A DNA stretch of 64,000 nucleotides from Escherichia phage ECO07P2, in the sequence record OP172785; one strand, 5' to 3'. Below the pieces are notes generated by a model, which was not told the DNA's origin, did not search any database, and worked only from the letters and a program-made list of their open reading frames with translations. How positions within the stretch are numbered: position 1 is the first letter of the stretch; the number at the start of each line of letters is the position of its first letter. This document shows, in pieces, positions 613 through 40,530 of the stretch. The translations under genes and the position numbers were made by a program.

Positions 613-3600
613 ATGGCCGAGATTAAAAGAAAGTTCAGAGCAGAAGATGGTCTGGACGCAGGTGGTGATAAAATAATCAACGTAGCTTTAGCTGATCGTA
701 CCGTAGGAACTGACGGTGTTAACGTTGATTACTTAATTCAAGAAAATACAGTTCAACAATACGATCCAACTCGTGGATATTTAAAAGATTTTGTAATCAT
801 TTATGATAACCGCTTTTGGGCTGCTATAAATGATATTCCAAAACCGGCAGGAGCTTTTAATAGCGGACGCTGGAGAGCATTACGTACCGATGCTAACTGG
901 ATTACAGTCTCATCTGGTTCATATCAATTAAAATCCGGTGAAGCTATTTCGGTTAACACTGCAGCTGGTAATGATATTACGTTTACTTTACCATCTTCCC
1001 CAATTGACGGTGATACTATCGTTCTCCAAGATATTGGAGGAAAACCTGGAGTTAACCAAGTTTTAATTGTAGCTCCAGTGCAAAGTATTGTAAACTTCAG
1101 AGGCGAACAAGTACGTTCAGTACTAATGACTCATCCAAAGTCACAGCTAGTTTTAATTTTTAGTAATCGTCTGTGGCAAATGTATGTAGCTGATTATAGT
1201 AGAGAAGCTGTAGTTGTAACACCAGCGAATACTTATCAAGCGCAATCTAACGATTTTATCGTACGTAGATTTACTTCTGCTGCACCGATTAATATTAAAC
1301 TTCCGAGATTTGCTAATCACGGCGATATTATTAATTTCGTCGATTTGGACAAATTAAATCCACTTTATCATACAATTGTTACGACATACGATGAAACTAC
1401 TTCAATACAAGAAGATGGAACTCATTCTATTGAAGGCCGCACATCGATTGACGGTTTCTTGATGTATGATGATAATGAAAAATTGTGGAGATTGTTTGAC
1501 GGGGACAGTAAAGCACGTTTACGCATTATAACGACTAATTCAAATATTCGTCCAAATGAAGAAGTTATGGTATTTGGTGCGAATAACGGAATGACTCAAA
1601 CAATTGAACTTCAGCTTCCAACTAATATTTCTGTTGGTGATACTGTTAAAATTTCCATGAATTACATGAGAAAAGGACAAACAGTTAAAATCAAAGCTGC
1701 AGGTGAAGATAAAATTGCTTCTTCAGTTCAATTGCTGCAATTCCCAAAACGTTCAGAATATCCGCCTGAAGCTGAATGGGTGACTGTTCAAGAATTAGTT
1801 TTTAACGGTGAAACTAATTATGTTCCAGTTTTACAACTTGCTTATATAGAAGATTCTGACGGAAAATACTGGGTAGTACAGCAAAACGTTCCAACCGTAG
1901 AAAGAGTCGATTCGTTAAATGATTCTACTAGAGCAAGATTAGGCGTGATTGCTTTAGCTACACAAGCTCAAGCTAATGCCGATTTAGAAAATTCTCCACA
2001 AAAAGAATTAGCAATTACTCCAGAAACATTAGCTAACCGTACTGCTACAGAAACTCGTAGAGGTATCGCAAGAATAGCAACTACTGCTCAAGTGAATCAG
2101 AACACTACATTCTCTTTTGCTGACGATATTATCATCACTCCTAAAAAGCTGAATGAAAGAACTGCCACAGAAACTCGTAGAGGTGTTGCTGAAATTGCTA
2201 CGCAGCAGGAAACTAATGCAGGTACTGATGATACTACAATCATCACTCCTAAAAAGCTTCAAGCTCGTCAAGGTTCTGAATCATTATCTGGTATTGTAAC
2301 ATTTGTATCTACTGCAGGAGCTACTCCAGCTTCTAGTCGTGAATTAAATGGTACAAACGTTTATAATAAAAACACTAATAATTTAGTTGTTTCGCCTAAA
2401 GCTCTGGATCAGTATAAAGCTACTCCAACACAACAAGGCGCAGTAATTTTAGCAGTTGAAAGTGAAGTAATTGCTGGAAAAAGTCAAGAAGGATGGGCAA
2501 ATGCGGTTGTAACGCCAGAAACGTTACATAAAAAGACATCAACTGATGGAAGAATTGGTTTAATTGAAATTGCTACGCAAAGTGAAGTTAATACGGGAAC
2601 TGATTATACTCGTGCAGTCACTCCTAAAACTTTAAATGACCGTATAGCAACTGAAAGTTTAAGTGGTATAGCTGAAATTGCTACACAAGTTGAATTCGAC
2701 GCAGGCGTCGACGATACTCGTATCTCTACACCATTAAAAATTAAAACTAGATTTAATAGTACTGATCGTACTTCTGTTGTTGCTCTATCTGGATTAGTTG
2801 AATCAGGAACTCTCTGGGACCATTATACCCTTAATATTCTTGAAGCAAATGAGACACAGCGTGGTACACTTCGTGTAGCTACACAAGTTGAAGCTGCTGC
2901 AGGAACATTGGATAATGTTTTAATAACTCCTAAAAAGCTTTTAGGTACTAAATCTACTGAAGCACAGGAAGGTGTTATTAAAGTTGCAACTCAGTCTGAA
3001 ACTGTGACTGGAACGTCAGCAAATACTGCTGTATCTCCAAAAAATTTAAAATGGATTGTGCAGAGTGAACCTACTTGGGCAGCTACTACTGCGATAAGAG
3101 GTTTTGTTAAAATGTCTGAAGGCGCAATTACTTTTGTCGGTAATGCAACTGCAGGTTCGACCCAGGCTCTTGACCTGTACGAGAAAAATAGCTATGCTAT
3201 CTCTCCGTACGAGTTAAACAAAACTCTTGGTAACTTCCTGCCGCGTTTGGCTAAAGCAGCAGACTCGGATAAACTGGATAACCTGGATAGTACACAGTTT
3301 ATTCGTCGTGATGTAGCCCAGGATATTAATGCTACTATGACATTTAAACAGCCTGCAAGAATTGAAAGTACTTTAACCGCTACAGGTGTGGTTAATTTGA
3401 GTGGTTCTGTTACTTCAAATAATACCACATTAACCGGTGCTACTGCAATCAATAGCAATTCTACTGTAGGTGCTCAGAATTACATTGAGTTCACTTCACT
3501 TTCGCAAGGCTCGGGTACTTGGACCTCTCAACATGATAGCAATGTTAAAGCTCCTGTATTTTTAAATATAACTACTCTAGCTGGCGCATCTAGATACGTT

Positions 3601-4458
3601 CCTTTAATTAAGCAACGTTATAAAGATGGAACATTTACCTTTGGTACATTGACAAATGAACCTACCTCAAATGATGAAGGTGCTTTTATTCTTCATTATA
3701 TAGATGCAGTAAAAACCCAGCGCAAATGGTCCTTTAGACGGAACGGTGATTTAGAAATATCGGCAGGTAATTTCGTTCTTGGTAATGGGACTGCTGTAAT
3801 TAATGGCGGGCTTAATGTTACTAAAGCTTCAGGTATTACAACCACCAGTCTAGTTGCTAATAGCGAATCTAGATTCGAAGGTGCCGTTACTATTAACAAC
3901 TTCCTTACGGTAAGCAACAAAGCTACCATTAACAACGGCTTAGATGTTCAGAAATATGCAAGGGTTACAGGAGATAAGACTTCTGACATCTATAGCAGAA
4001 AACCTACAATGGATAATGTTGGTTTTTGGTCTATAGACATCAACGATTCAGCCACTTATAACCAGTTCCCAGGTTATTTTAAAATGGTTGAAAAAACTAA
4101 TGAAGTGACTGGACTTCCATACTTAGAACGTGGTGAAGAAGTTAAATCTCCTGGTACATTGACTCAGTTTGGTAACACACTTGATTCGCTTTACCAAGAT
4201 TGGATTACTTATCCAACGACTCCAGAAGCACGTACCACTCGCTGGACGCGTACATGGCAGAAAACCAAAAACTCTTGGTCGAGTTTTGTTCAGGTATTTG
4301 ATGGAGGTAACCCTCCTCAGCCGTCTGATATCGGTGCTTTACCATCTGATAATGCTACAATGGGGAATCTTACTATTCGTGATTTCTTACGAATTGGTAA
4401 TGTTCGCATTGTTCCTGACCCAGTGAATAAATCTGTTAAATTTGAATGGATTGAATAG
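613..4458 (+). CDS. 34: long tail fibre proximal subunit gp34
   Basis: 1281 aa ORF (T4 gp34 about 1289 aa), position after rnh, repeated fibre shaft motifs (TPKKL, ATQ..., RGVAEIATQ). Confidence 0.9.
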   Translation: MAEIKRKFRAEDGLDAGGDKIINVALADRTVGTDGVNVDYLIQENTVQQYDPTRGYLKDFVIIYDNRFWAAINDIPKPAGAFNSGRWRALRTDANWITVSSGSYQLKSGEAISVNTAAGNDITFTLPSSPIDGDTIVLQDIGGKPGVNQVLIVAPVQSIVNFRGEQVRSVLMTHPKSQLVLIFSNRLWQMYVADYSREAVVVTPANTYQAQSNDFIVRRFTSAAPINIKLPRFANHGDIINFVDLDKLNPLYHTIVTTYDETTSIQEDGTHSIEGRTSIDGFLMYDDNEKLWRLFDGDSKARLRIITTNSNIRPNEEVMVFGANNGMTQTIELQLPTNISVGDTVKISMNYMRKGQTVKIKAAGEDKIASSVQLLQFPKRSEYPPEAEWVTVQELVFNGETNYVPVLQLAYIEDSDGKYWVVQQNVPTVERVDSLNDSTRARLGVIALATQAQANADLENSPQKELAITPETLANRTATETRRGIARIATTAQVNQNTTFSFADDIIITPKKLNERTATETRRGVAEIATQQETNAGTDDTTIITPKKLQARQGSESLSGIVTFVSTAGATPASSRELNGTNVYNKNTNNLVVSPKALDQYKATPTQQGAVILAVESEVIAGKSQEGWANAVVTPETLHKKTSTDGRIGLIEIATQSEVNTGTDYTRAVTPKTLNDRIATESLSGIAEIATQVEFDAGVDDTRISTPLKIKTRFNSTDRTSVVALSGLVESGTLWDHYTLNILEANETQRGTLRVATQVEAAAGTLDNVLITPKKLLGTKSTEAQEGVIKVATQSETVTGTSANTAVSPKNLKWIVQSEPTWAATTAIRGFVKMSEGAITFVGNATAGSTQALDLYEKNSYAISPYELNKTLGNFLPRLAKAADSDKLDNLDSTQFIRRDVAQDINATMTFKQPARIESTLTATGVVNLSGSVTSNNTTLTGATAINSNSTVGAQNYIEFTSLSQGSGTWTSQHDSNVKAPVFLNITTLAGASRYVPLIKQRYKDGTFTFGTLTNEPTSNDEGAFILHYIDAVKTQRKWSFRRNGDLEISAGNFVLGNGTAVINGGLNVTKASGITTTSLVANSESRFEGAVTINNFLTVSNKATINNGLDVQKYARVTGDKTSDIYSRKPTMDNVGFWSIDINDSATYNQFPGYFKMVEKTNEVTGLPYLERGEEVKSPGTLTQFGNTLDSLYQDWITYPTTPEARTTRWTRTWQKTKNSWSSFVQVFDGGNPPQPSDIGALPSDNATMGNLTIRDFLRIGNVRIVPDPVNKSVKFEWIE

Positions 4459-18241: not shown

Positions 18242-19178
18242 ATTTAAATTGTTCAGTAACGTCTTCAACTACTTCGTATTGACAGGTACGCATTTTAGCA
18301 TCGTTGTAATCAATCGGAATTGATACTACATCACGAGGATGTACTTTAACTTTTACAACTCGGCTGGTTGAACTGCCAAAGTGACGAATATAAGATTTAG
18401 AACACACATGCAGACCACGAGAACAAGTTTGTGTATCATCGTCATTCACGCGAGTACGTGGCATTTTAACTACTTTACCAGGACTGTTATCAAAGGTATT
18501 TGAGTGACAGTCAAAGTAATTGCTGCGAACTACTTTCCAAGCATAGAAGTAACCGTCTTCTGTAATTTCAATATCGTTTGCTACCAAGAAATCAAAGAGT
18601 CGAGATACCGCTTTTTGGCTCGGGTTTTCCAACAGATTTTCCAAGAACGGAAAATAAAATTCAAAGTTTTCACCTTTTTCCATCGAATCGAGAATACGAT
18701 CAACTAAACCAGACCGCAATTCAATGTTTTGATAGAACAAGCTTCCACCTTCAATTCGAACATCACCGGAAATATATTTTTCAACAGCACGACGAACGTT
18801 AATTTTTTGCGCTGCTTCTTCCAATTTATCCGCAACAAGCAGATTAAGAATTTCTTGGAAGTTTGAATGAGTATTAGGAGTTGCGTTATAAGTTACACCA
18901 TCAACAGTAATTGAAATGAATTTTTTAGATGCATTCCAAATAATGTCAGATTTAGCAACTGGAGCAATAGCTGCATCACTCTTAACTTTAACTGTAATGT
19001 CACCGCTAATGGTAACTTTGGAGCGCTCAGCTTCTTCAGCATTTTTCAAAACACGACGGATTGTGTCCACCGATACACCTTGCCAATCAGCCAATTCCTG
19101 TTGGGTGTAATTACCACTTGAATACAGTTTGACAATTTCAGCTTGTTCGTTTTTGGTCAGGCATTTAATATTGTACAT
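18240..19178 (-). CDS. rIIB: rIIB protein
   Basis: 312 aa (T4 rIIB 312 aa), adjacent to rIIA. Confidence 0.9.
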   Translation of the reverse strand: MYNIKCLTKNEQAEIVKLYSSGNYTQQELADWQGVSVDTIRRVLKNAEEAERSKVTISGDITVKVKSDAAIAPVAKSDIIWNASKKFISITVDGVTYNATPNTHSNFQEILNLLVADKLEEAAQKINVRRAVEKYISGDVRIEGGSLFYQNIELRSGLVDRILDSMEKGENFEFYFPFLENLLENPSQKAVSRLFDFLVANDIEITEDGYFYAWKVVRSNYFDCHSNTFDNSPGKVVKMPRTRVNDDDTQTCSRGLHVCSKSYIRHFGSSTSRVVKVKVHPRDVVSIPIDYNDAKMRTCQYEVVEDVTEQFK

Positions 19179-33375: not shown

Positions 33376-33717
33376 TCAATCACAAGATGTAGATGAACAA
33401 CTAGAATCGCAAGAACTTCCACACGAATCGCCCGTCCATACATGAACAGGAACATTAGTGTCATATGAATCAGAACTAGACTGTGTATTCTGTGTATTAG
33501 ATGATGCAGTAGGTGTTGACCAGCGCCAAGGATTTTTATAATATTCTTGGGCTTCTTCATAAGTCATAGTAACTGCTTCTACTGTTCCATCTCCCATATA
33601 AACATATTCAACTACAGTTAAAGGAAGGTAGTCATTTGAAATAGGAACTACACCTTCTCCAGGAGCTGTAGAGAAAAAATCCGTAAAGAAACTTTTAAAC
33701 CAATTAAAGATAAACAT
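33376..33717 (-). CDS. hypothetical protein with Cys/Ser-rich C-terminal tail (113 aa)
   Basis: C-terminus [20 protein letters not shown]. Confidence 0.5.
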
Positions 33718-35257: not shown

Positions 35258-35458
35258 ATGGTACAAAAATTAATGGCACTTGTTAATGCCATAAAAGGTA
35301 ATAAAAAACGTATAGCTTTTACTATTTCTGCTATGGTAGGAATTTTACTTTGGAATTTTGTTTTATCGCCAATTGCTATTGCTCATGGCGTTAATATTCC
35401 AGTAATTACTCTTGATACATTCGTAGATTTAGCATTTGCTTTAGTTGGGTTAATTTAA
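35258..35458 (+). CDS. hypothetical two-TM membrane protein (66 aa) on the opposite strand
   Basis: TAAGGAGGA RBS 4 nt before ATG; two hydrophobic segments; fills the 56-61 intergenic space. Confidence 0.4.
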   Translation: MVQKLMALVNAIKGNKKRIAFTISAMVGILLWNFVLSPIAIAHGVNIPVITLDTFVDLAFALVGLI

Positions 35459-36483
35459 ATCTTAGCATATTTAGATAGCCGCATTTTAGCCATCAACCCC
35501 TGCGCAATATTATTTTTCATATATTCCATAATTTGTTCAGGGGTTGCACCTTCCTTTCTAATCATATCATTAACATCTTTTGATTTCCAGGGAGATTTGT
35601 CCCAAAACATAACCCTTTCTCCTGCATCAACCAATTTAGTCATTCGTTTAATAGTGTCAGGATGACGAGGTTCATTATCTAAAACCCATACACGTCTATC
35701 TTTAAATGGAACAATTTCTAGGTCTAATTGACCACCTGTAATAGCTATACCATTTTCAATAAAAAGTGAATCTATAGGTCCTTCTAGAACATATACATCA
35801 CCATCTTTGACCCGTTCAACGCCATAGATTTTTGTTGCCTCAGGATAAGCTTTGATGGTGATATATTTTTGGGGAGCATCTTTCTTTAACGCACGTCCTT
35901 GAAAAGACTCAGCTTTTCCATTAGCATTATAAATTGGAATAACAAGACGAGGCTCAGGTATTTCCTTTTTGTATGTTCCTGGTGCTATACTATTAACTAA
36001 TTTAGGCCATTCGGTTGTAAACCAAAGATATTTCCATTTGTCCTTTGGAATACAACGAGCTTTTACGTATTTTATAATTGGATGGTCTTCCGCCAGTTTA
36101 TCTAATCTAACACATGACGGAAGAGATTTAATTATTTTCTTCTCAGGTTGTTTAGGAAGTTCTTTAGGTTTTTCTACTGGACGACTTTTACCTTTTTCTT
36201 TTCTTATTTCAAAGATATACTCACGATATAAATCGGGTTCAAACTCCTTTAAATATATTCCGATTGGTGCATGATAGTTACAGTTATAACAATGAATATT
36301 TCCTTCATTATTATCGCCATAATACCATCCACGAGCTTTATTTTGGTCGGTTTTTGAATCTCCACAAACAGGGCATCTAAACCGCAATTTAAAAGTTGAA
36401 CTATTATTTACTTGTGTAAATTTAGGTAAATGAGCTAATGCACGATATGCAAACTCATTATCAATCCAAGGTATTGATGACAT
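35455..36483 (-). CDS. 61: DNA primase gp61
   Basis: 342 aa (T4 gp61 342 aa), N-terminal zinc ribbon CPVCGDS...CYNC, Toprim-like core. Confidence 0.9.
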   Translation of the reverse strand: MSSIPWIDNEFAYRALAHLPKFTQVNNSSTFKLRFRCPVCGDSKTDQNKARGWYYGDNNEGNIHCYNCNYHAPIGIYLKEFEPDLYREYIFEIRKEKGKSRPVEKPKELPKQPEKKIIKSLPSCVRLDKLAEDHPIIKYVKARCIPKDKWKYLWFTTEWPKLVNSIAPGTYKKEIPEPRLVIPIYNANGKAESFQGRALKKDAPQKYITIKAYPEATKIYGVERVKDGDVYVLEGPIDSLFIENGIAITGGQLDLEIVPFKDRRVWVLDNEPRHPDTIKRMTKLVDAGERVMFWDKSPWKSKDVNDMIRKEGATPEQIMEYMKNNIAQGLMAKMRLSKYAKI

Positions 36484-36485
36484 TT

Positions 36486-36650
36486 TTACTCTTCTTTTTC
36501 TTTAGATTCCTCTTTTTTCTTTTTAGGAATCTGTTCAGGGCCTTTATTTACTACAGCGCCTGACGTTGTTCCAGTAGAGATATTTTCAGGATTACTACCC
36601 GAATCTCCAGCTACCATATCTTCTTTGATAAATTCTTTATATGTTTTCAT
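36486..36650 (-). CDS. hypothetical small protein (54 aa)
   Basis: Hand-translated MKTYKEFIKEDMVAGDSGSNPENI...; below ORF-track cutoff. Confidence 0.35.
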   Translation of the reverse strand: MKTYKEFIKEDMVAGDSGSNPENISTGTTSGAVVNKGPEQIPKKKKEESKEKEE

Positions 36651-36651
36651 A

Positions 36652-37008
36652 TTAACCTCTATTCATAAAAGCATTAAAAATTTGGTCATCAATCGATGGA
36701 ACAGCAACCTTTTCTACATCATTTAGCAAATCATTAATTTCATCAGATAGCATAACACATGTACCTTTATTTCCTGTAATTGTTACTGCACAATTACGAA
36801 CGTTTTCTTTATCAAATTTTAGGTTAATATTTTCGTAGTGAAAATCCTTTAATGCCGAATATATCTTTAAAATGAAATTGTCTTTTACTACAATAAACCC
36901 AACCTCACTATTAAAACGCGGTTCATGGAAACTGTAATAAACCTTTTCATCTATAAAATCGTATGAAATTTTTTCCATTTTTAAATATGAAAATTCAGAA
37001 CTATACAT
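36652..37008 (-). CDS. hypothetical protein (118 aa) sharing C-terminal tail with next gene
   Basis: Ends SIDDQIFNAFMNRG; its 3' about 45 nt are duplicated at the end of 37010..37642. Confidence 0.55.
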   Translation of the reverse strand: MYSSEFSYLKMEKISYDFIDEKVYYSFHEPRFNSEVGFIVVKDNFILKIYSALKDFHYENINLKFDKENVRNCAVTITGNKGTCVMLSDEINDLLNDVEKVAVPSIDDQIFNAFMNRG

Positions 37009-37009
37009 A

Positions 37010-37642
37010 TTAACCTTTATTCATAAAAGCATTAAAAATTTGATCGTCAATAGAAACTTTTACTTTAGGCTGTTCTTCAAACGGTAATTCATATCCACAT
37101 ATTACAATTTTGTGATCGATACCAAAATACACAGAAGCAATATTATTAATATTATTTTCAGTGAAATCTAAATCAACATCAATATCTTTTTGACTAACGC
37201 TCAAAGGATAATTAATACGAATAATTCGATTATCTTTAACAAAGATTCCACCGACATACTCTGTGCTGCGTTTAAAGTTTACACGTTTCCTAAATGAAAA
37301 ATATTCAGGTTCTTTATGGGCTCGACTCATAGGGCTTAAAGTGTATTCCGAATATGAAATATCAAATCCTACACCTTCAATATGAGCCAAAGTATCATGA
37401 TTAAACCAATTATAATCGTATGCCAAATCCATTAAATTGTAATATGTGAAAGGCACCGGATTAACATCATATGTTGTACCTTTAAAATCTGCCCAGGCAA
37501 CGATTTCGTTATCTTTAACAATTACAAAAATTGTGCCAATAAGATATCCACGGTTATTTTCATTAGGTGTTATATTATAACATTGTGCATCAGGAAATTT
37601 ACCGTATTTAAACGGTGGATTTTTGTGCATATAATAAATCAT
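37010..37642 (-). CDS. hypothetical protein (210 aa), 61.2-position gene
   Basis: Ends SIDDQIFNAFMNKG; occupies the 61.x region between primase and sp. Confidence 0.55.
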   Translation of the reverse strand: MIYYMHKNPPFKYGKFPDAQCYNITPNENNRGYLIGTIFVIVKDNEIVAWADFKGTTYDVNPVPFTYYNLMDLAYDYNWFNHDTLAHIEGVGFDISYSEYTLSPMSRAHKEPEYFSFRKRVNFKRSTEYVGGIFVKDNRIIRINYPLSVSQKDIDVDLDFTENNINNIASVYFGIDHKIVICGYELPFEEQPKVKVSIDDQIFNAFMNKG

Positions 37643-37643
37643 A

Positions 37644-37937
37644 TTATTCGCCTGTGATTTCGGTTACGATATTTTTATTATTAAAGTTTTTATCGCAATA
37701 CAGAACATAATTATACTGCATTACACCACCAGACTTAAGTTGTTTTTGCACTTCAGCTTTCATTTCAGGACGATCACGCTCAACGATATTCATAATATCG
37801 GCTTCAATCTGAGTTTCAACCTCAGTCTGATCTGCAGTCATAGACCACTCACACAAATCTTTGTCATAACCCGCCATAGCAGGCTGAGCAGCGCAAGAAG
37901 ATAAAGCAAAAATTGCAGCAAAGATAAATTTTTTCAT
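37644..37937 (-). CDS. sp: Spackle periplasmic protein Sp
   Basis: 97 aa with signal peptide MKKFIFAAIFALSSCAAQPAMA; T4 Sp is 97 aa at this position. Confidence 0.8.
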   Translation of the reverse strand: MKKFIFAAIFALSSCAAQPAMAGYDKDLCEWSMTADQTEVETQIEADIMNIVERDRPEMKAEVQKQLKSGGVMQYNYVLYCDKNFNNKNIVTEITGE

Positions 37938-37963
37938 GATAATCTCCTCAGTAGTTTATGTTT

Positions 37964-37993
37964 ATAGTATCTCAATTTTCAACAAAAGTAAAC
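37964..37993 (-). promoter_or_regulatory. early promoter upstream of sp
   Basis: GTTTAC 37988-37993, TACTAT 37964-37969. Confidence 0.55.
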
Positions 37994-38040
37994 ACTAGTA
38001 GAAGCAAACAGACAAATTACAATAATTGGTGATTTCAGTT

Positions 38041-38232
38041 TCATTCTTCTCCTCCATGTTGATGAACATATTCTTTTTCAAGTCTAGAGCACAAGTTTTC
38101 ATATTCAACTAATAAAAATGAATCAAGTGCGTTATTTCTATGCTGACACCGTTCTTGTAAAGAATCCATCTCTGAACGTTGTTCTTGTGTTAATAATTGA
38201 TAACCTGATACTTTAGACATTTTATTCTCCAT
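38041..38232 (-). CDS. hypothetical protein (63 aa)
   Basis: ORF. Confidence 0.45.
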   Translation of the reverse strand: MENKMSKVSGYQLLTQEQRSEMDSLQERCQHRNNALDSFLLVEYENLCSRLEKEYVHQHGGEE

Positions 38233-38284: not shown

Positions 38285-38539
38285 CTATTTTATTTCCTCA
38301 AGTTCGTTAATCAATAAAAGTTCTCTGACGCTAAAAACAAAGAAAAATGTGTTCCCATCAACCAGAGCATGACCGCTAATAGAACACCCTCTGCGGAATT
38401 TAGAAACTTCACAATCTAGAACTGTAAAGGGTTTTAATCCTATGACTTTAACTGTGCGTCTATTCAGTTCACAACCACTCGCGAATTTTTCCAAATCTTC
38501 TTCTGATTTAAACTGATATTCTCTATTAACTAGCATCAT
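38285..38539 (-). CDS. hypothetical protein (84 aa)
   Basis: ORF. Confidence 0.5.
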   Translation of the reverse strand: MMLVNREYQFKSEEDLEKFASGCELNRRTVKVIGLKPFTVLDCEVSKFRRGCSISGHALVDGNTFFFVFSVRELLLINELEEIK

Positions 38540-38602: not shown

Positions 38603-38902
38603 CTATTTTAAAACTTCTGTATAATCACATGTTACAAACTGTTTCTCTAACTTGACGATTTTACGAAAGTATCTTTTGCATTGGCGAATCTGCCGCTTTG
38701 TAGGGCGCACAGCAAACTTAATAAATTCCACTCGACCAAATGGAGGGCTTTCTTCTGCTGGAATATCTAATACCAATTCCCACGTATCTGCGATAAGTGC
38801 TTTGAATTGAGTATTTTTCCTTACGTTATACGGAGTAGGTTTAAATAAAACAATATGCATATTATCCTCGGCAATCCACTTCGCATACTTTCTTGTCATC
38901 AA
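38603..38902 (-). CDS. hypothetical protein (99 aa)
   Basis: ORF. Confidence 0.5.
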   Translation of the reverse strand: MMTRKYAKWIAEDNMHIVLFKPTPYNVRKNTQFKALIADTWELVLDIPAEESPPFGRVEFIKFAVRPTKRQIRQCKRYFRKIVKLEKQFVTCDYTEVLK

Positions 38903-39044
38903 TGAAAGCTTTAACTAGCGCTTTATTAACTTCAGCATATTGAGTAGTAGCCCATTGAACGTCATCTTTCATCATTGTGATTTCTTTAGTAAACATGCTT
39001 TCATTCTTAAACCACCCCATAAAAACTACCTTTACCAATTCCAT
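38862..39044 (-). CDS. dmd: Dmd, discriminator of mRNA degradation (antitoxin against host RnlA/LsoA)
   Basis: 60 aa MELVKVVFMGWFKNESMFTKEITMMKDD..., matches remembered T4 Dmd; directly downstream of gene 41. Confidence 0.8.
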   Translation of the reverse strand: MELVKVVFMGWFKNESMFTKEITMMKDDVQWATTQYAEVNKALVKAFIDDKKVCEVDCRG

Positions 39045-39062: not shown

Positions 39063-39103
39063 CCGACAAGACTACTATACCATAGTCTTGTCGGCTTGTA
39101 AAC
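39063..39103 (-). promoter_or_regulatory. early promoter with 12-bp stem-loop
   Basis: GTTTAC 39098-39103, TATAGT 39074-39079, inverted repeat CCGACAAGACTA...TAGTCTTGTCGG. Confidence 0.55.
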
Positions 39104-40530
39104 TAAAATTTTAATTCATTTGCCAAAGCATCTAACTGAGCTCGAGCGGATTCGTTTCTTTGATAGCGATTCTGTTCAGCCTGAATCTGCTGTGAACCTG
39201 CTACTTCGTTCACTTCAGTTGGAGTAGAATCTTGTTCAATTTCTACCCATTTCTGATTTCCTTTTTGAACACCCATCAAAAACTTATTCCATTTATTCTT
39301 ATCACCGTATCGTGATTTGATTTGCTTAATGAGTTGTTGTTCAGCAGCTGCTAACTCCTCAGTTTCAATGACCGCAAGCATAAAATCGGCTGTTGCTGGA
39401 AGACCGGCAGATTCTGCAATATCGCTCATGTTAACATCAGAAGAATCCCAAGCTTGCTTACCAACCTGTGCTGCAGTCCAAAGAACAGTTTCGGTTTCAA
39501 CAGCCAGAGCACGCAATTCTTCTGCGATGGCTTTAACAGTTGTGTAACTATTTTCTGAGTAAACTCTGATGCGGCAAGATTTACAAATACCTAGATAGTC
39601 GACAATAATGATTGTTGGAACAAAATTCTTCTTGAGCTTTAATTCATTTAAAAGCGACCGAAATGTATTAGCGTCTGCTCCACCAGTAGGATACTGTTTA
39701 ACGATTAAACGACCGAGAGTAGATTTCTCACGCCATTTTTCCATTTTTCCTTTATACTCAGCGTAAGAAATATGCCCATCATCAATGTCATCAAGAGAAA
39801 CATCAAGCATATTAGCGTCAATACGCTTAGCACAGACTTCTTCTGCCATTTCCATGGAAATGTAAAGAACATTATGTCCGAGCTGCAAATAATCTGCTGC
39901 CAATGAACATAGACCTAATGACTTACCAACGTTAACACCAGCCATTAAAACGTTCAGTGTTCCAGTCTCAGCTCCGCCTTTAGTAATTTTATTTAGAATT
40001 TTGAGTTTAAATGGAACCTTACGAGCTTTATTCATATAAGATAGCCAACGTGCTTCGTAGTCATCCATCCAATCATGGCCAACGTAGCTATCAAATGAAA
40101 TTGATAATGCTTGGCGCATGATGTCAGGAATAGCACCTACATCTGGCATTTTCTTATTTCGTTTTTCTGGAGGAAGCTCAGCATTAGTTTGAATTTCAAT
40201 TATTTTAGATGTGGCGTTAAACATCGCCCTTTGCTGAACGTATTTTTCTGTTTCTTTTACTAACCAGCTATGGTCTTCTGGAGAATCGGTTAGTTTCGAA
40301 ATAAGTGTTTTTACACCAGAATATTCTGTTTCAGTAAATGAACTATTTTCTAATGCAACATTTAACGCATTAATAGATGGAACGCTATGGTACTCATTGA
40401 CATGAGATTTAATTAATTTGAATGTATTTTTAGCTGGACCACTTTCAAAATATTCTGAATCCATATATGGCCAAACTTTTGAAAAATAAGCTTGATCAAA
40501 TATGAGATGAGAAAGAATAATTTCTACCAC
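39103..40530 (-). CDS. 41: replicative DNA helicase gp41 (DnaB-like)
   Basis: 475 aa (T4 gp41 475 aa), Walker A GVNVGKS. Confidence 0.9.
   Translation of the reverse strand: MVEIILSHLIFDQAYFSKVWPYMDSEYFESGPAKNTFKLIKSHVNEYHSVPSINALNVALENSSFTETEYSGVKTLISKLTDSPEDHSWLVKETEKYVQQRAMFNATSKIIEIQTNAELPPEKRNKKMPDVGAIPDIMRQALSISFDSYVGHDWMDDYEARWLSYMNKARKVPFKLKILNKITKGGAETGTLNVLMAGVNVGKSLGLCSLAADYLQLGHNVLYISMEMAEEVCAKRIDANMLDVSLDDIDDGHISYAEYKGKMEKWREKSTLGRLIVKQYPTGGADANTFRSLLNELKLKKNFVPTIIIVDYLGICKSCRIRVYSENSYTTVKAIAEELRALAVETETVLWTAAQVGKQAWDSSDVNMSDIAESAGLPATADFMLAVIETEELAAAEQQLIKQIKSRYGDKNKWNKFLMGVQKGNQKWVEIEQDSTPTEVNEVAGSQQIQAEQNRYQRNESARAQLDALANELKF

Follow-up and report, generated by a model that had tools for sequence, protein, structure and literature searches.

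Two neighbouring genes of Escherichia phage ECO07P2 (record OP172785) end in almost the same 14 codons, and this common ending belongs to the entire AdfA family as its invariant C-terminal motif and is not a mobile module. The window, i.e. the entire stretch of 64,000 nucleotides (nt) that was analysed, represents a T4-like (Tequatrovirus) genome with Escherichia phage GEP001 as its closest match (99.8%). The longer gene, ORF210 (an open reading frame, ORF, of 210 amino acids, aa), is identified by its sequence as full-length AdfA (T4 61.2), the anti-DarT factor A, and the shorter one, ORF118 (118 aa), is assigned as an old single-domain paralogue of the AdfA C-terminal domain. It is probable, in our judgment, that the motif is kept by selection at the level of the peptide and that the same 49 nt serve as the middle promoter P61, as the Shine-Dalgarno junction of the next gene and as a patch of homology for recombination, with the tail as a putative contact helix. 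Overall, this is a case of ordinary paralogy with an unusually informative conserved motif in which three signals overlap.

The C-terminal ends of the two proteins are SIDDQIFNAFMNRG in ORF118 and SIDDQIFNAFMNKG in ORF210, with the common form SIDDQIFNAFMN(R/K)G. An initial annotation of this DNA had described both reading frames and near-identical DNA across each stop codon, and both observations were borne out. The repeat unit measures 49 nt, comprising 14 codons, the stop codon TAA, a T and the next ATG; its copies, at 36648..36696 and 37006..37054, are identical at 45 of 49 nt and include an exact run of 25 nt. This 25-mer occurs exactly twice in the window, with up to three mismatches allowed, compared to zero occurrences expected from shuffles. 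The locus was also correctly recognized as the anti-defence islet between the primase (gene 61) and the helicase (gene 41), and both sp and dmd were found there. What the initial annotation omitted was that the two genes, like all genes of the region, are encoded on the minus strand, and that the tail DNA overlaps the mapped T4 promoter P61.

The 210-aa gene, pointed out earlier as a candidate for tests against toxin-type defences, proved to be the AdfA anti-DarT factor (Pfam PF23813; PMC11257639). Its product scored 460.5 bits against the Pfam AdfA model PF23813 over model positions 1-211 (cut-off 27 bits), and its 210 aa in two modules agree with the two-domain architecture of AdfA (~208-219 aa). 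AdfA, encoded by gene 61.2 of T4 and RB69 and studied by the LeRoux lab, blocks the bacterial DarT toxin (PMC11257639, PMC11825919). It neutralises DarT1 through direct binding, and residue 164 sets the specificity, His being active and the Arg of RB69 inactive (PMC11257639). The AlphaFold2 (AF2) model of ORF210, with a mean predicted local distance difference test (pLDDT) score of 74, displays an order of five strands followed by a helix twice, then a disordered linker and the tail helix. This secondary-structure order gives AdfA the look of two beta5-alpha modules in tandem.

The initial annotation considered the two proteins to be unrelated outside their tails, a view that the alignments overturned. 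In BLASTP, residues 4-118 of ORF118 align to residues 98-210 of ORF210 with 36% identity (E=1e-11). When the 14-residue tail was stripped from both proteins, ORF118 still matched the C-terminal half of ORF210 (BLASTP E=2e-4; Smith-Waterman z=6.0, a score attained by 0 of 2000 shuffles). ORF118 reaches 34.4 bits against PF23813 (curated cut-off 27), at model positions 113-211 only; the precomputed Pfam assignment of its clusters is likewise PF23813, and the PHROG families of ORF118 (phrog_4122) and ORF210 (phrog_3781) hit one another. The AF2 model of ORF118 is compact (pLDDT 83) and consists of five strands, a helix, a strand, a helix, a disordered linker and a C-terminal helix, so that the secondary-structure order is common to ORF118 and to each half of AdfA. 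Neither the ORF118 model nor the AdfA model matched any solved structure or known fold. ORF118 resembles AdfA in its C-terminal domain, its invariant tail, its slot after sp and the 'ENxxNxA' helix that holds residue 164; it differs from AdfA in being a single beta5-alpha module plus tail (118 versus ~210 aa) and in having its own PHROG. Residue 164 of AdfA belongs to the helix that follows the second sheet, a helix also conserved in ORF118 ('ENVRNCA' vs 'NNINNIA'), where the residue aligned with the specificity position is Asn.

The tail is by far the most constant part of these proteins. In an alignment of 23 sequences, D107 and Q109-M115 were invariant, with bodies 19-49% identical to ORF118. 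The motif (S)(I/V)DDQIFNAFM(N/K)(R/K)(G/D) is present in both window proteins and is encoded by all 17 of the 17 distinct tail DNA variants, and the same tail peptide recurs across four phage genera on five body types. Hence the ending is family-wide in T4-like coliphages; an ending confined to this phage, which the initial annotation had named as fatal to its proposal, is not what was found. Across the 17 DNA variants, DDQIFNAFM is unchanged and synonymous swaps are seen at nearly all codons (GAT/GAC, CAA/CAG, ATT/ATA, AAT/AAC, GCT/GCC/GCA, TTT/TTC, AGA/CGA). Pairwise nonsynonymous divergence (dN) of the tail is 0-0.08 and synonymous divergence (dS) 0.15-1.6, the latter comparable to that of the bodies, for which dN/dS is 0.2-0.4. 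A dN near zero together with body-like dS and synonymous variants at nearly all codons argues that selection acts on the peptide.

The same DNA coincides with a mapped promoter. The MotA-box consensus is (a/t)(a/t)(a/t)TGCTTtA, located 12+-1 bp from a -10 element TAtaaT (Hinton 2010, PMC2988021), and the start site of the T4 middle promoter P61, which depends on MotA/AsiA sigma appropriation, lies at 19122 (PMC2988021, Table 1). In the T4 genome (NC_000866), the last position of gene 61.2 (adfA) is 19132 and the first of 61.1 is 19130; the base at 19122, an A, is situated 8 nt inside 61.1, and 19134..19129 reads TAATAT, made up of the adfA stop codon, a T and the AT of the 61.1 ATG. By this geometry, the N-A-F codons of the AdfA tail contain the MotA box of P61. 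T4 is identical to copy 1 of the window over the MotA box, the spacer and the -10. In both window copies, TAATGCTTTT matches 9 of the 10 MotA-consensus positions (the last A is a T) and is followed, after a 12-bp spacer, by TAATAT. The window is thus like T4 P61 in box, spacing and -10, and unlike the T4 locus in having two copies, the second in front of ORF118; with two family members in tandem, the promoter is therefore duplicated. By analogy with T4, the predicted start of copy 1 is 36642, 8 nt inside 61.1, and by identity with P61 that of copy 2 is 37000, within ORF118 and past its ATG. The annotation of phage Lutter carries 27-nt promoter features on both tails. We infer that both P61-type copies of the window are active. 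In the literature searched, no mention was found of P61 lying wholly within the conserved coding tail of adfA.

These overlaps raise the question of whether the DNA is the primary object of constraint, i.e. whether the P61 promoter, the ribosome-binding site and the stop/start junction are conserved with the peptide as a passenger. Several observations fit such a reading: (i) the P61 start is mapped immediately downstream of the T4 adfA tail, (ii) each of the 17 tail variants has a MotA-like box that scores 8-9/9, and most of them retain TAnnnT at -10, (iii) the GGT-TAA-T-ATG junction is kept in nearly all lineages, whichever gene follows, and (iv) the tails preceding 61.1 are all nucleotide-identical. 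However, synonymous changes occur in the MotA-box core (GCT to GCC or GCA; AAT to AAC), and the -10 is altered (TAA to TGA or TAG; TAAAGA in locus L022), while DDQIFNAFM remains constant. The residues S-I/V-D-D-Q-I-F, encoded in the 5' half that precedes the MotA box, are equally invariant as a peptide, with variation at synonymous sites, and dS is as high in the tail as in the body. A passenger role for the peptide is consequently unlikely. In other genera the peptide is intact and the promoter elements, MotA-box core and -10 alike, have partly decayed; for this reason we ranked the peptide as the deeper constraint.

The tail is in addition a place of recombination. Junction-specific searches suggested that the Tequatrovirus states are about equally common, with AdfA-61.1 in 186 records, sp-118-aa in 141 and AdfA-118-aa in 157. 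The tail variant tracks the downstream gene and not the body: before 61.1 it is always ...GATGACCAA...AGAGGT, be it on the T4-type AdfA, the 210-aa AdfA or the 118-aa form, and before the 118-aa gene it always ends AAAGGT at all loci examined. Tail nucleotides cluster by position, not by genome. On one metagenome contig (L036), adfA follows the T4 sequence as far as the D-D codons (28-30 of 30 nt per block), and from the start of the 25-nt run its match to the window is 100%; the parent switches between these points, which places a crossover inside the tail. All family members carry the 49-nt block, which therefore also offers a stretch of homology for the recombination of bodies and downstream genes. 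Chimeric tails of 210-aa AdfA alleles in AdfA-only genomes (L023-L026) were considered as further cases and set aside as uninformative, their entire 3' part being T4-like. In these same genomes the 210-aa alleles (adfA, 1501..2133) are mosaic, window-like at the 5' side and T4-like at the 3' side; recombination therefore also takes place within the gene body. As a separate observation, the T2 sequence TTAGAGGTTAGTATG between sp and the 118-aa gene (L001, 2473..2503) closely resembles the 3' end of the tail, ATAGAGGTTAATATG, and may be either a vestige of a deleted adfA tail or a convergent ribosome-binding site.

Recombination inside the tail, as in L036, could be taken to favour another view, namely that the resemblance is a scar of recent gene conversion or duplication, one tail having been copied onto the other without functional meaning, and the 25-nt exact repeat, its copies 358 nt apart between bodies about 30% identical, invites the same thought. 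We consider this explanation highly improbable. Nine of the 12 comparable codons of the window pair are identical, which is not above the 6.3 expected from T4 codon bias (P=0.09); with an identical peptide and this codon bias, recent conversion is therefore not needed. Internal and 61.1-proximal tails are distinct, stable variants across many phages with no sign of homogenisation, and on these two grounds recent conversion was ruled out as a candidate. The invariance of the peptide on five body types likewise speaks against it, and a mere scar, as the ending had earlier been suspected to be, is not what one would call the most strongly selected part of the proteins (dN ~0).

All carriers of the tail occupy one slot. 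Six arrangements were recognized: (i) the T4 type with sp, AdfA (208 aa) and 61.1, (ii) the T2 type with sp, the 118-aa form and 61.1, (iii) the window type with sp, AdfA (210 aa), the 118-aa form and 61.1, (iv) the VR20/VR25 type with sp, a ~146-aa form and a 117/119-aa form, (v) the Dhakavirus type (JS10, Bp7, WG01) with sp and a 146-aa form, and (vi) the RB69 type with sp and AdfA (216-219 aa). In all six, wherever upstream sequence was available, the family gene or genes come directly after sp, with 1-2 members per genome. Two rarer single-domain forms, P0068 (125 aa) and P0071 (120 aa), are also located directly 3' of sp; their bodies are 24-31% identical to ORF118 and their tails identical, both ending DDQIFNAFMNRG. 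At 90% identity the family forms 62 clusters, of which all source-named ones belong to T4-like coliphages, save two apparent mislabels, and the rest are metagenomic. A protein search among 1.84 billion proteins returned 10 representative clusters only, and a metagenome scan with back-translated DDQIFNAFM yielded 16 tails on 12 contigs, all on known body types, with sp or known downstream genes present wherever the flanks allowed. The AdfA family is hence confined to T4-like coliphages and to one slot directly downstream of sp. No description of the single-domain forms was found in the searchable literature; T2 is described in the AdfA literature as lacking adfA.

The initial annotation had proposed a portable module or a recombination scar. 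The part concerning recombination holds to some extent, given the switch inside the tail of L036. The module does not: the carriers of the tail are homologues in one genomic slot, and the tail is their C-terminus. That it is a portable tag, grafted onto the ends of proteins with no kinship, could be argued from the tail being far more conserved than the bodies and sitting on a flexible linker, and from the 146-aa body, which without the tail has no significant profile similarity to AdfA. We nonetheless give this reading very little weight, less even than recent conversion. ORF118 and AdfA are homologous without the tail, which contradicts a graft for ORF118; the 146-aa form, missed by Pfam in Dhakaviruses, aligns on the same motifs in a MAFFT alignment and has a Foldseek match (E=1.2e-4, a match that includes the tail); and no tail was found on other proteins or at other loci, nor any carrier outside the AdfA family or its slot, in the phage, viral-contig, metagenome and 1.84-billion-protein searches. 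Of all links within the family, the homology of the 146-aa body is the weakest.

ORF118, like ORF210, is under purifying selection, and it is not a dead remnant. It occurs in 336 phage records, including distant relatives, and is the sole AdfA-family member in T2-like phages. Least credible of all is that it represents a decaying, unexpressed partial duplicate of adfA, a fate that the initial annotation had allowed for: ORF118 is half the size of AdfA, about one third of Tequatrovirus genomes are without the 118-aa gene and the P61-like copy 2 would initiate transcription downstream of its ATG, yet the gene is intact and at least 80% identical in ~294 records, its body has a dN/dS of 0.25-0.39 and a confident compact fold, its orthologues in other genera are still 45-48% identical, and it possesses its own Shine-Dalgarno sequence and start codon and a conserved N-terminus.

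How the family might work can be outlined as follows. The tail would be the constant working part, a short helix on a flexible linker; in both AF2 models it is predicted as a short helix after a linker with pLDDT <50. The tail helix would most likely bind the DarT-type toxin on a surface that does not vary, much as type II antitoxin tails fold onto their toxins, or alternatively a constant partner. The variable body, including the helix with specificity residue 164, would set which toxin allele is recognized. The 49-nt block also carries the P61 sequence for the primase gene and the Shine-Dalgarno sequence and stop/start of the next gene, and it provides a crossover site for exchange of bodies and downstream genes. 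A constant contact element is the best fit for a helix that never varies and that a flexible linker joins to bodies which evolve fast; the helix may be a binding element, and the earlier idea of an interaction or targeting tag is plausible. ORF118, too, would have anti-toxin activity.

A number of points weigh against this reading. AdfA with a C-terminal T18 fusion (pUT18, two-hybrid) still bound DarT1 (PMC11257639); binding thus does not require the end of the tail to be free. Deletion of adfA from T4 gave no phenotype on DarTG1, and DarT1 binding and rescue of phage on DarTG1 are established for RB69 AdfA(R164H) and ectopic T4 AdfA alone (PMC11257639). At the specificity position (Arg164 in RB69, His in T4) the window AdfA carries Asn (N167) and thus differs from both the active and the inactive alleles; among the other alleles, His is present in 13 of 15 and Arg in the RB69 type, and the Asn allele is found also in cluster P0006 (94 member sequences) and in L004. 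The pLDDT of the tail is low (51-71), so the helix itself is only a prediction, and its hydrophobic moment is not above that of shuffled sequence, a result on which an amphipathic tail helix was rejected. The N- and C-terminal halves of AdfA share weak sequence similarity (Smith-Waterman z=2.4); homology of the halves by sequence was accordingly not accepted, and the matching order of secondary structure is its sole support. For the 146-aa form, tail-less hhalign comparison with AdfA was not significant (E 0.05-0.19), with shallow profiles (effective number of sequences, Neff, ~1.4). Finally, P61 activity has been mapped in T4 only.

A bolder extension, which we regard as possible and rather doubtful, is that the AdfA family constitutes a modular anti-toxin arsenal. 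The invariant helix would be its "warhead" or docking peptide for a pocket that is invariant among DarT-type ADP-ribosyltransferases or for a constant partner at the replication fork such as the gp45 clamp, and the bodies would be swappable specificity units exchanged by crossover in the tail. The single-domain forms (the 118-aa form, the 146-aa form of Dhakavirus, P0068 and P0071) would then neutralise DarT variants or toxins beyond the reach of the two-domain AdfA.

AdfA is a recently described counter-defence protein whose mechanism is known solely as binding of DarT1 (PMC11257639). The present analysis adds that ~300 sequenced Tequatroviruses, including T2, carry an unrecognized half-size AdfA paralogue and that Dhakaviruses carry a third form of the family. 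The 12-14-residue C-terminal motif is the one invariant element of the family and offers a precise target for mutagenesis directed at the mechanism. As the peptide, the middle promoter of the primase gene and a ribosome-binding site lie in the same DNA, deletion or swapping of adfA can alter gene 61 expression, a caveat both for phage engineering and for the interpretation of adfA knock-outs. The tail is, furthermore, a natural example of a coding repeat as the crossover point at which anti-defence cassettes are exchanged. The features of the locus are listed in the following table.

Features of the AdfA locus in the window (positions of the 64,000-nt stretch)
Feature	Position	Strand	Basis or remark
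Gene 61 (DNA primase)	35455..36483	-	ORF and annotation; served by promoter P61 (Table 1, PMC2988021)
Gene 61.1, 54 aa	36486..36650	-	phrog_1823; T4/T2 annotation; right border of the slot in Tequatrovirus
-10 TAATAT, copy 1	36649..36654	-	ORF118 TAA + T + AT of the 61.1 ATG
ORF118, short single-domain AdfA-family paralogue, 118 aa	36652..37008	-	phrog_4122, Pfam AdfA
AGAGGT (codons R-G)	36655..36660	-	Doubles as putative Shine-Dalgarno (GAGG) for 61.1
Tail copy 1, SIDDQIFNAFMNRG, 14 codons, end of ORF118	36655..36696	-	Predicted helix 106-115 after disordered linker
MotA-box-like TAATGCTTTT, copy 1	36667..36676	-	In F-N-A-F codons of the ORF118 tail
-10 TAATAT, copy 2	37007..37012	-	adfA stop + T + AT of the ORF118 ATG
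ORF210 = adfA (T4 gene 61.2 homologue), 210 aa	37010..37642	-	Pfam PF23813, phrog_3781
AAAGGT (codons K-G)	37013..37018	-	Doubles as weaker putative Shine-Dalgarno (AAGG) for ORF118
Tail copy 2, SIDDQIFNAFMNKG, 14 codons, end of adfA	37013..37054	-	Predicted helix 198-207 after disordered linker
MotA-box-like TAATGCTTTT, copy 2	37025..37034	-	In the adfA tail
sp (spackle)	37644..37937	-	Pfam T4_Spackle; conserved left border of the slot
dmd	38862..39044	-	Three small genes between sp and dmd
Gene 41 (helicase)	39103..40530	-	Other end of the islet from gene 61

Several observations concern the neighbours of the family. In T2 (L001, NC_054931, 2194..2472; LC348380), sp is annotated with 92 aa and ends ...NNKNNHR; its counterparts in the window and T4 are 97 aa long, with the ends ...NIVTEITGE or ...NIIAEVVGE. 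There is a one-base difference from other T2 records here (140-nt vs 141-nt match, 99.3%), apparently an indel of 1 nt, which would be a sequencing error or a genuine frameshift of this T2 record. The 61.1 gene of the window matches only the C-terminal 46 residues of the 156-aa phrog_2086, and RB69-like phages (L015, 3052..3546) have a 164-aa protein with the same C-terminal ...GTTTGAVVNKGPEQIPSKKRK as 61.1; just upstream of the primase, 61.1 is thus a second short protein, adjacent to the first, whose C-terminus recurs in a longer one. To the T4 order (sp, 61.4, dmd) the window adds two small genes, both placed after sp and before its homologue of 61.4. One is a 63-aa ORF of phrog_37915 (38041..38232, -) and the other an 84-aa ORF (38285..38539, -) that matches a 'goF mRNA metabolism modulator' (phrog_2980, E=5e-20).

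Further afield, a Dhakavirus-like contig (L012, IMGVR_UViG_2974741249_000001) has an apparently split gene 61: a 176-aa ORF (MGSGGPLSRAKEKYGLENFEREILEFF...; 3185..3715) immediately precedes two pieces of the primase, 84 and 135 aa long, which suggests an insertion of the homing-endonuclease type. In a phage with the P0071 form (L019), an HNH endonuclease gene is located at 1871..2491, between gene 41 and the dmd region. Within the window, a 113-aa ORF at 33376..33717 (-) has a Cys/Ser-rich C-terminus, and a hydrophobic 66-aa ORF lies on the opposite strand just past the 3' end of gene 61 (35258..35458, +); the latter is a coding sequence in the annotation of phage Lutter and is called as a gene in several metagenome contigs.

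Three known systems invite comparison with the tail and its DNA. The first is the set of gp45-clamp-binding C-termini of T4 gp43 and gp55 (SLDFLF/Y); in the window, gp43 ends ASLDFLFG and gp55 carries SLDFLY in its C-terminus. Like these, the AdfA tail is acidic and aromatic and begins S-[IL]-D; unlike them, it (S-I-D-D-Q-I-F-N-A-F-M-N-R-G) has another register, with four residues after the aromatics. The clamp-binding motif SLDFL[FY] is not found in the tail (SIDDQIFNAFMNRG), and the resemblance is a loose one. The second system, at the level of DNA, is PeSL. The 49-nt block is similar in being a short repeated regulatory sequence that flanks accessory genes in a hyperplastic region and that acts as a crossover site for the gain, loss or exchange of cassettes. 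PeSL, however, is intergenic and combines a sigma-70 early promoter with a terminator stem-loop, whereas the 49-nt block is coding and holds a MotA-type middle promoter. No sigma-70-type site was found on the tails and no terminator-like site (0) within 36400..38100; the block, being coding and having neither a sigma-70 promoter on the tails nor a terminator or stem-loop, was ruled out as a PeSL-type cassette. The third comparison is with type II antitoxins such as Phd, CcdA, MazE and RelB, which have C-terminal toxin-binding tails. AdfA differs from them in that there is no relationship of sequence or fold and in that its specificity residue 164 resides in the body; in common with them, its tail is a flexible C-terminal segment, predicted to be helical, on a protein that binds its toxin directly.

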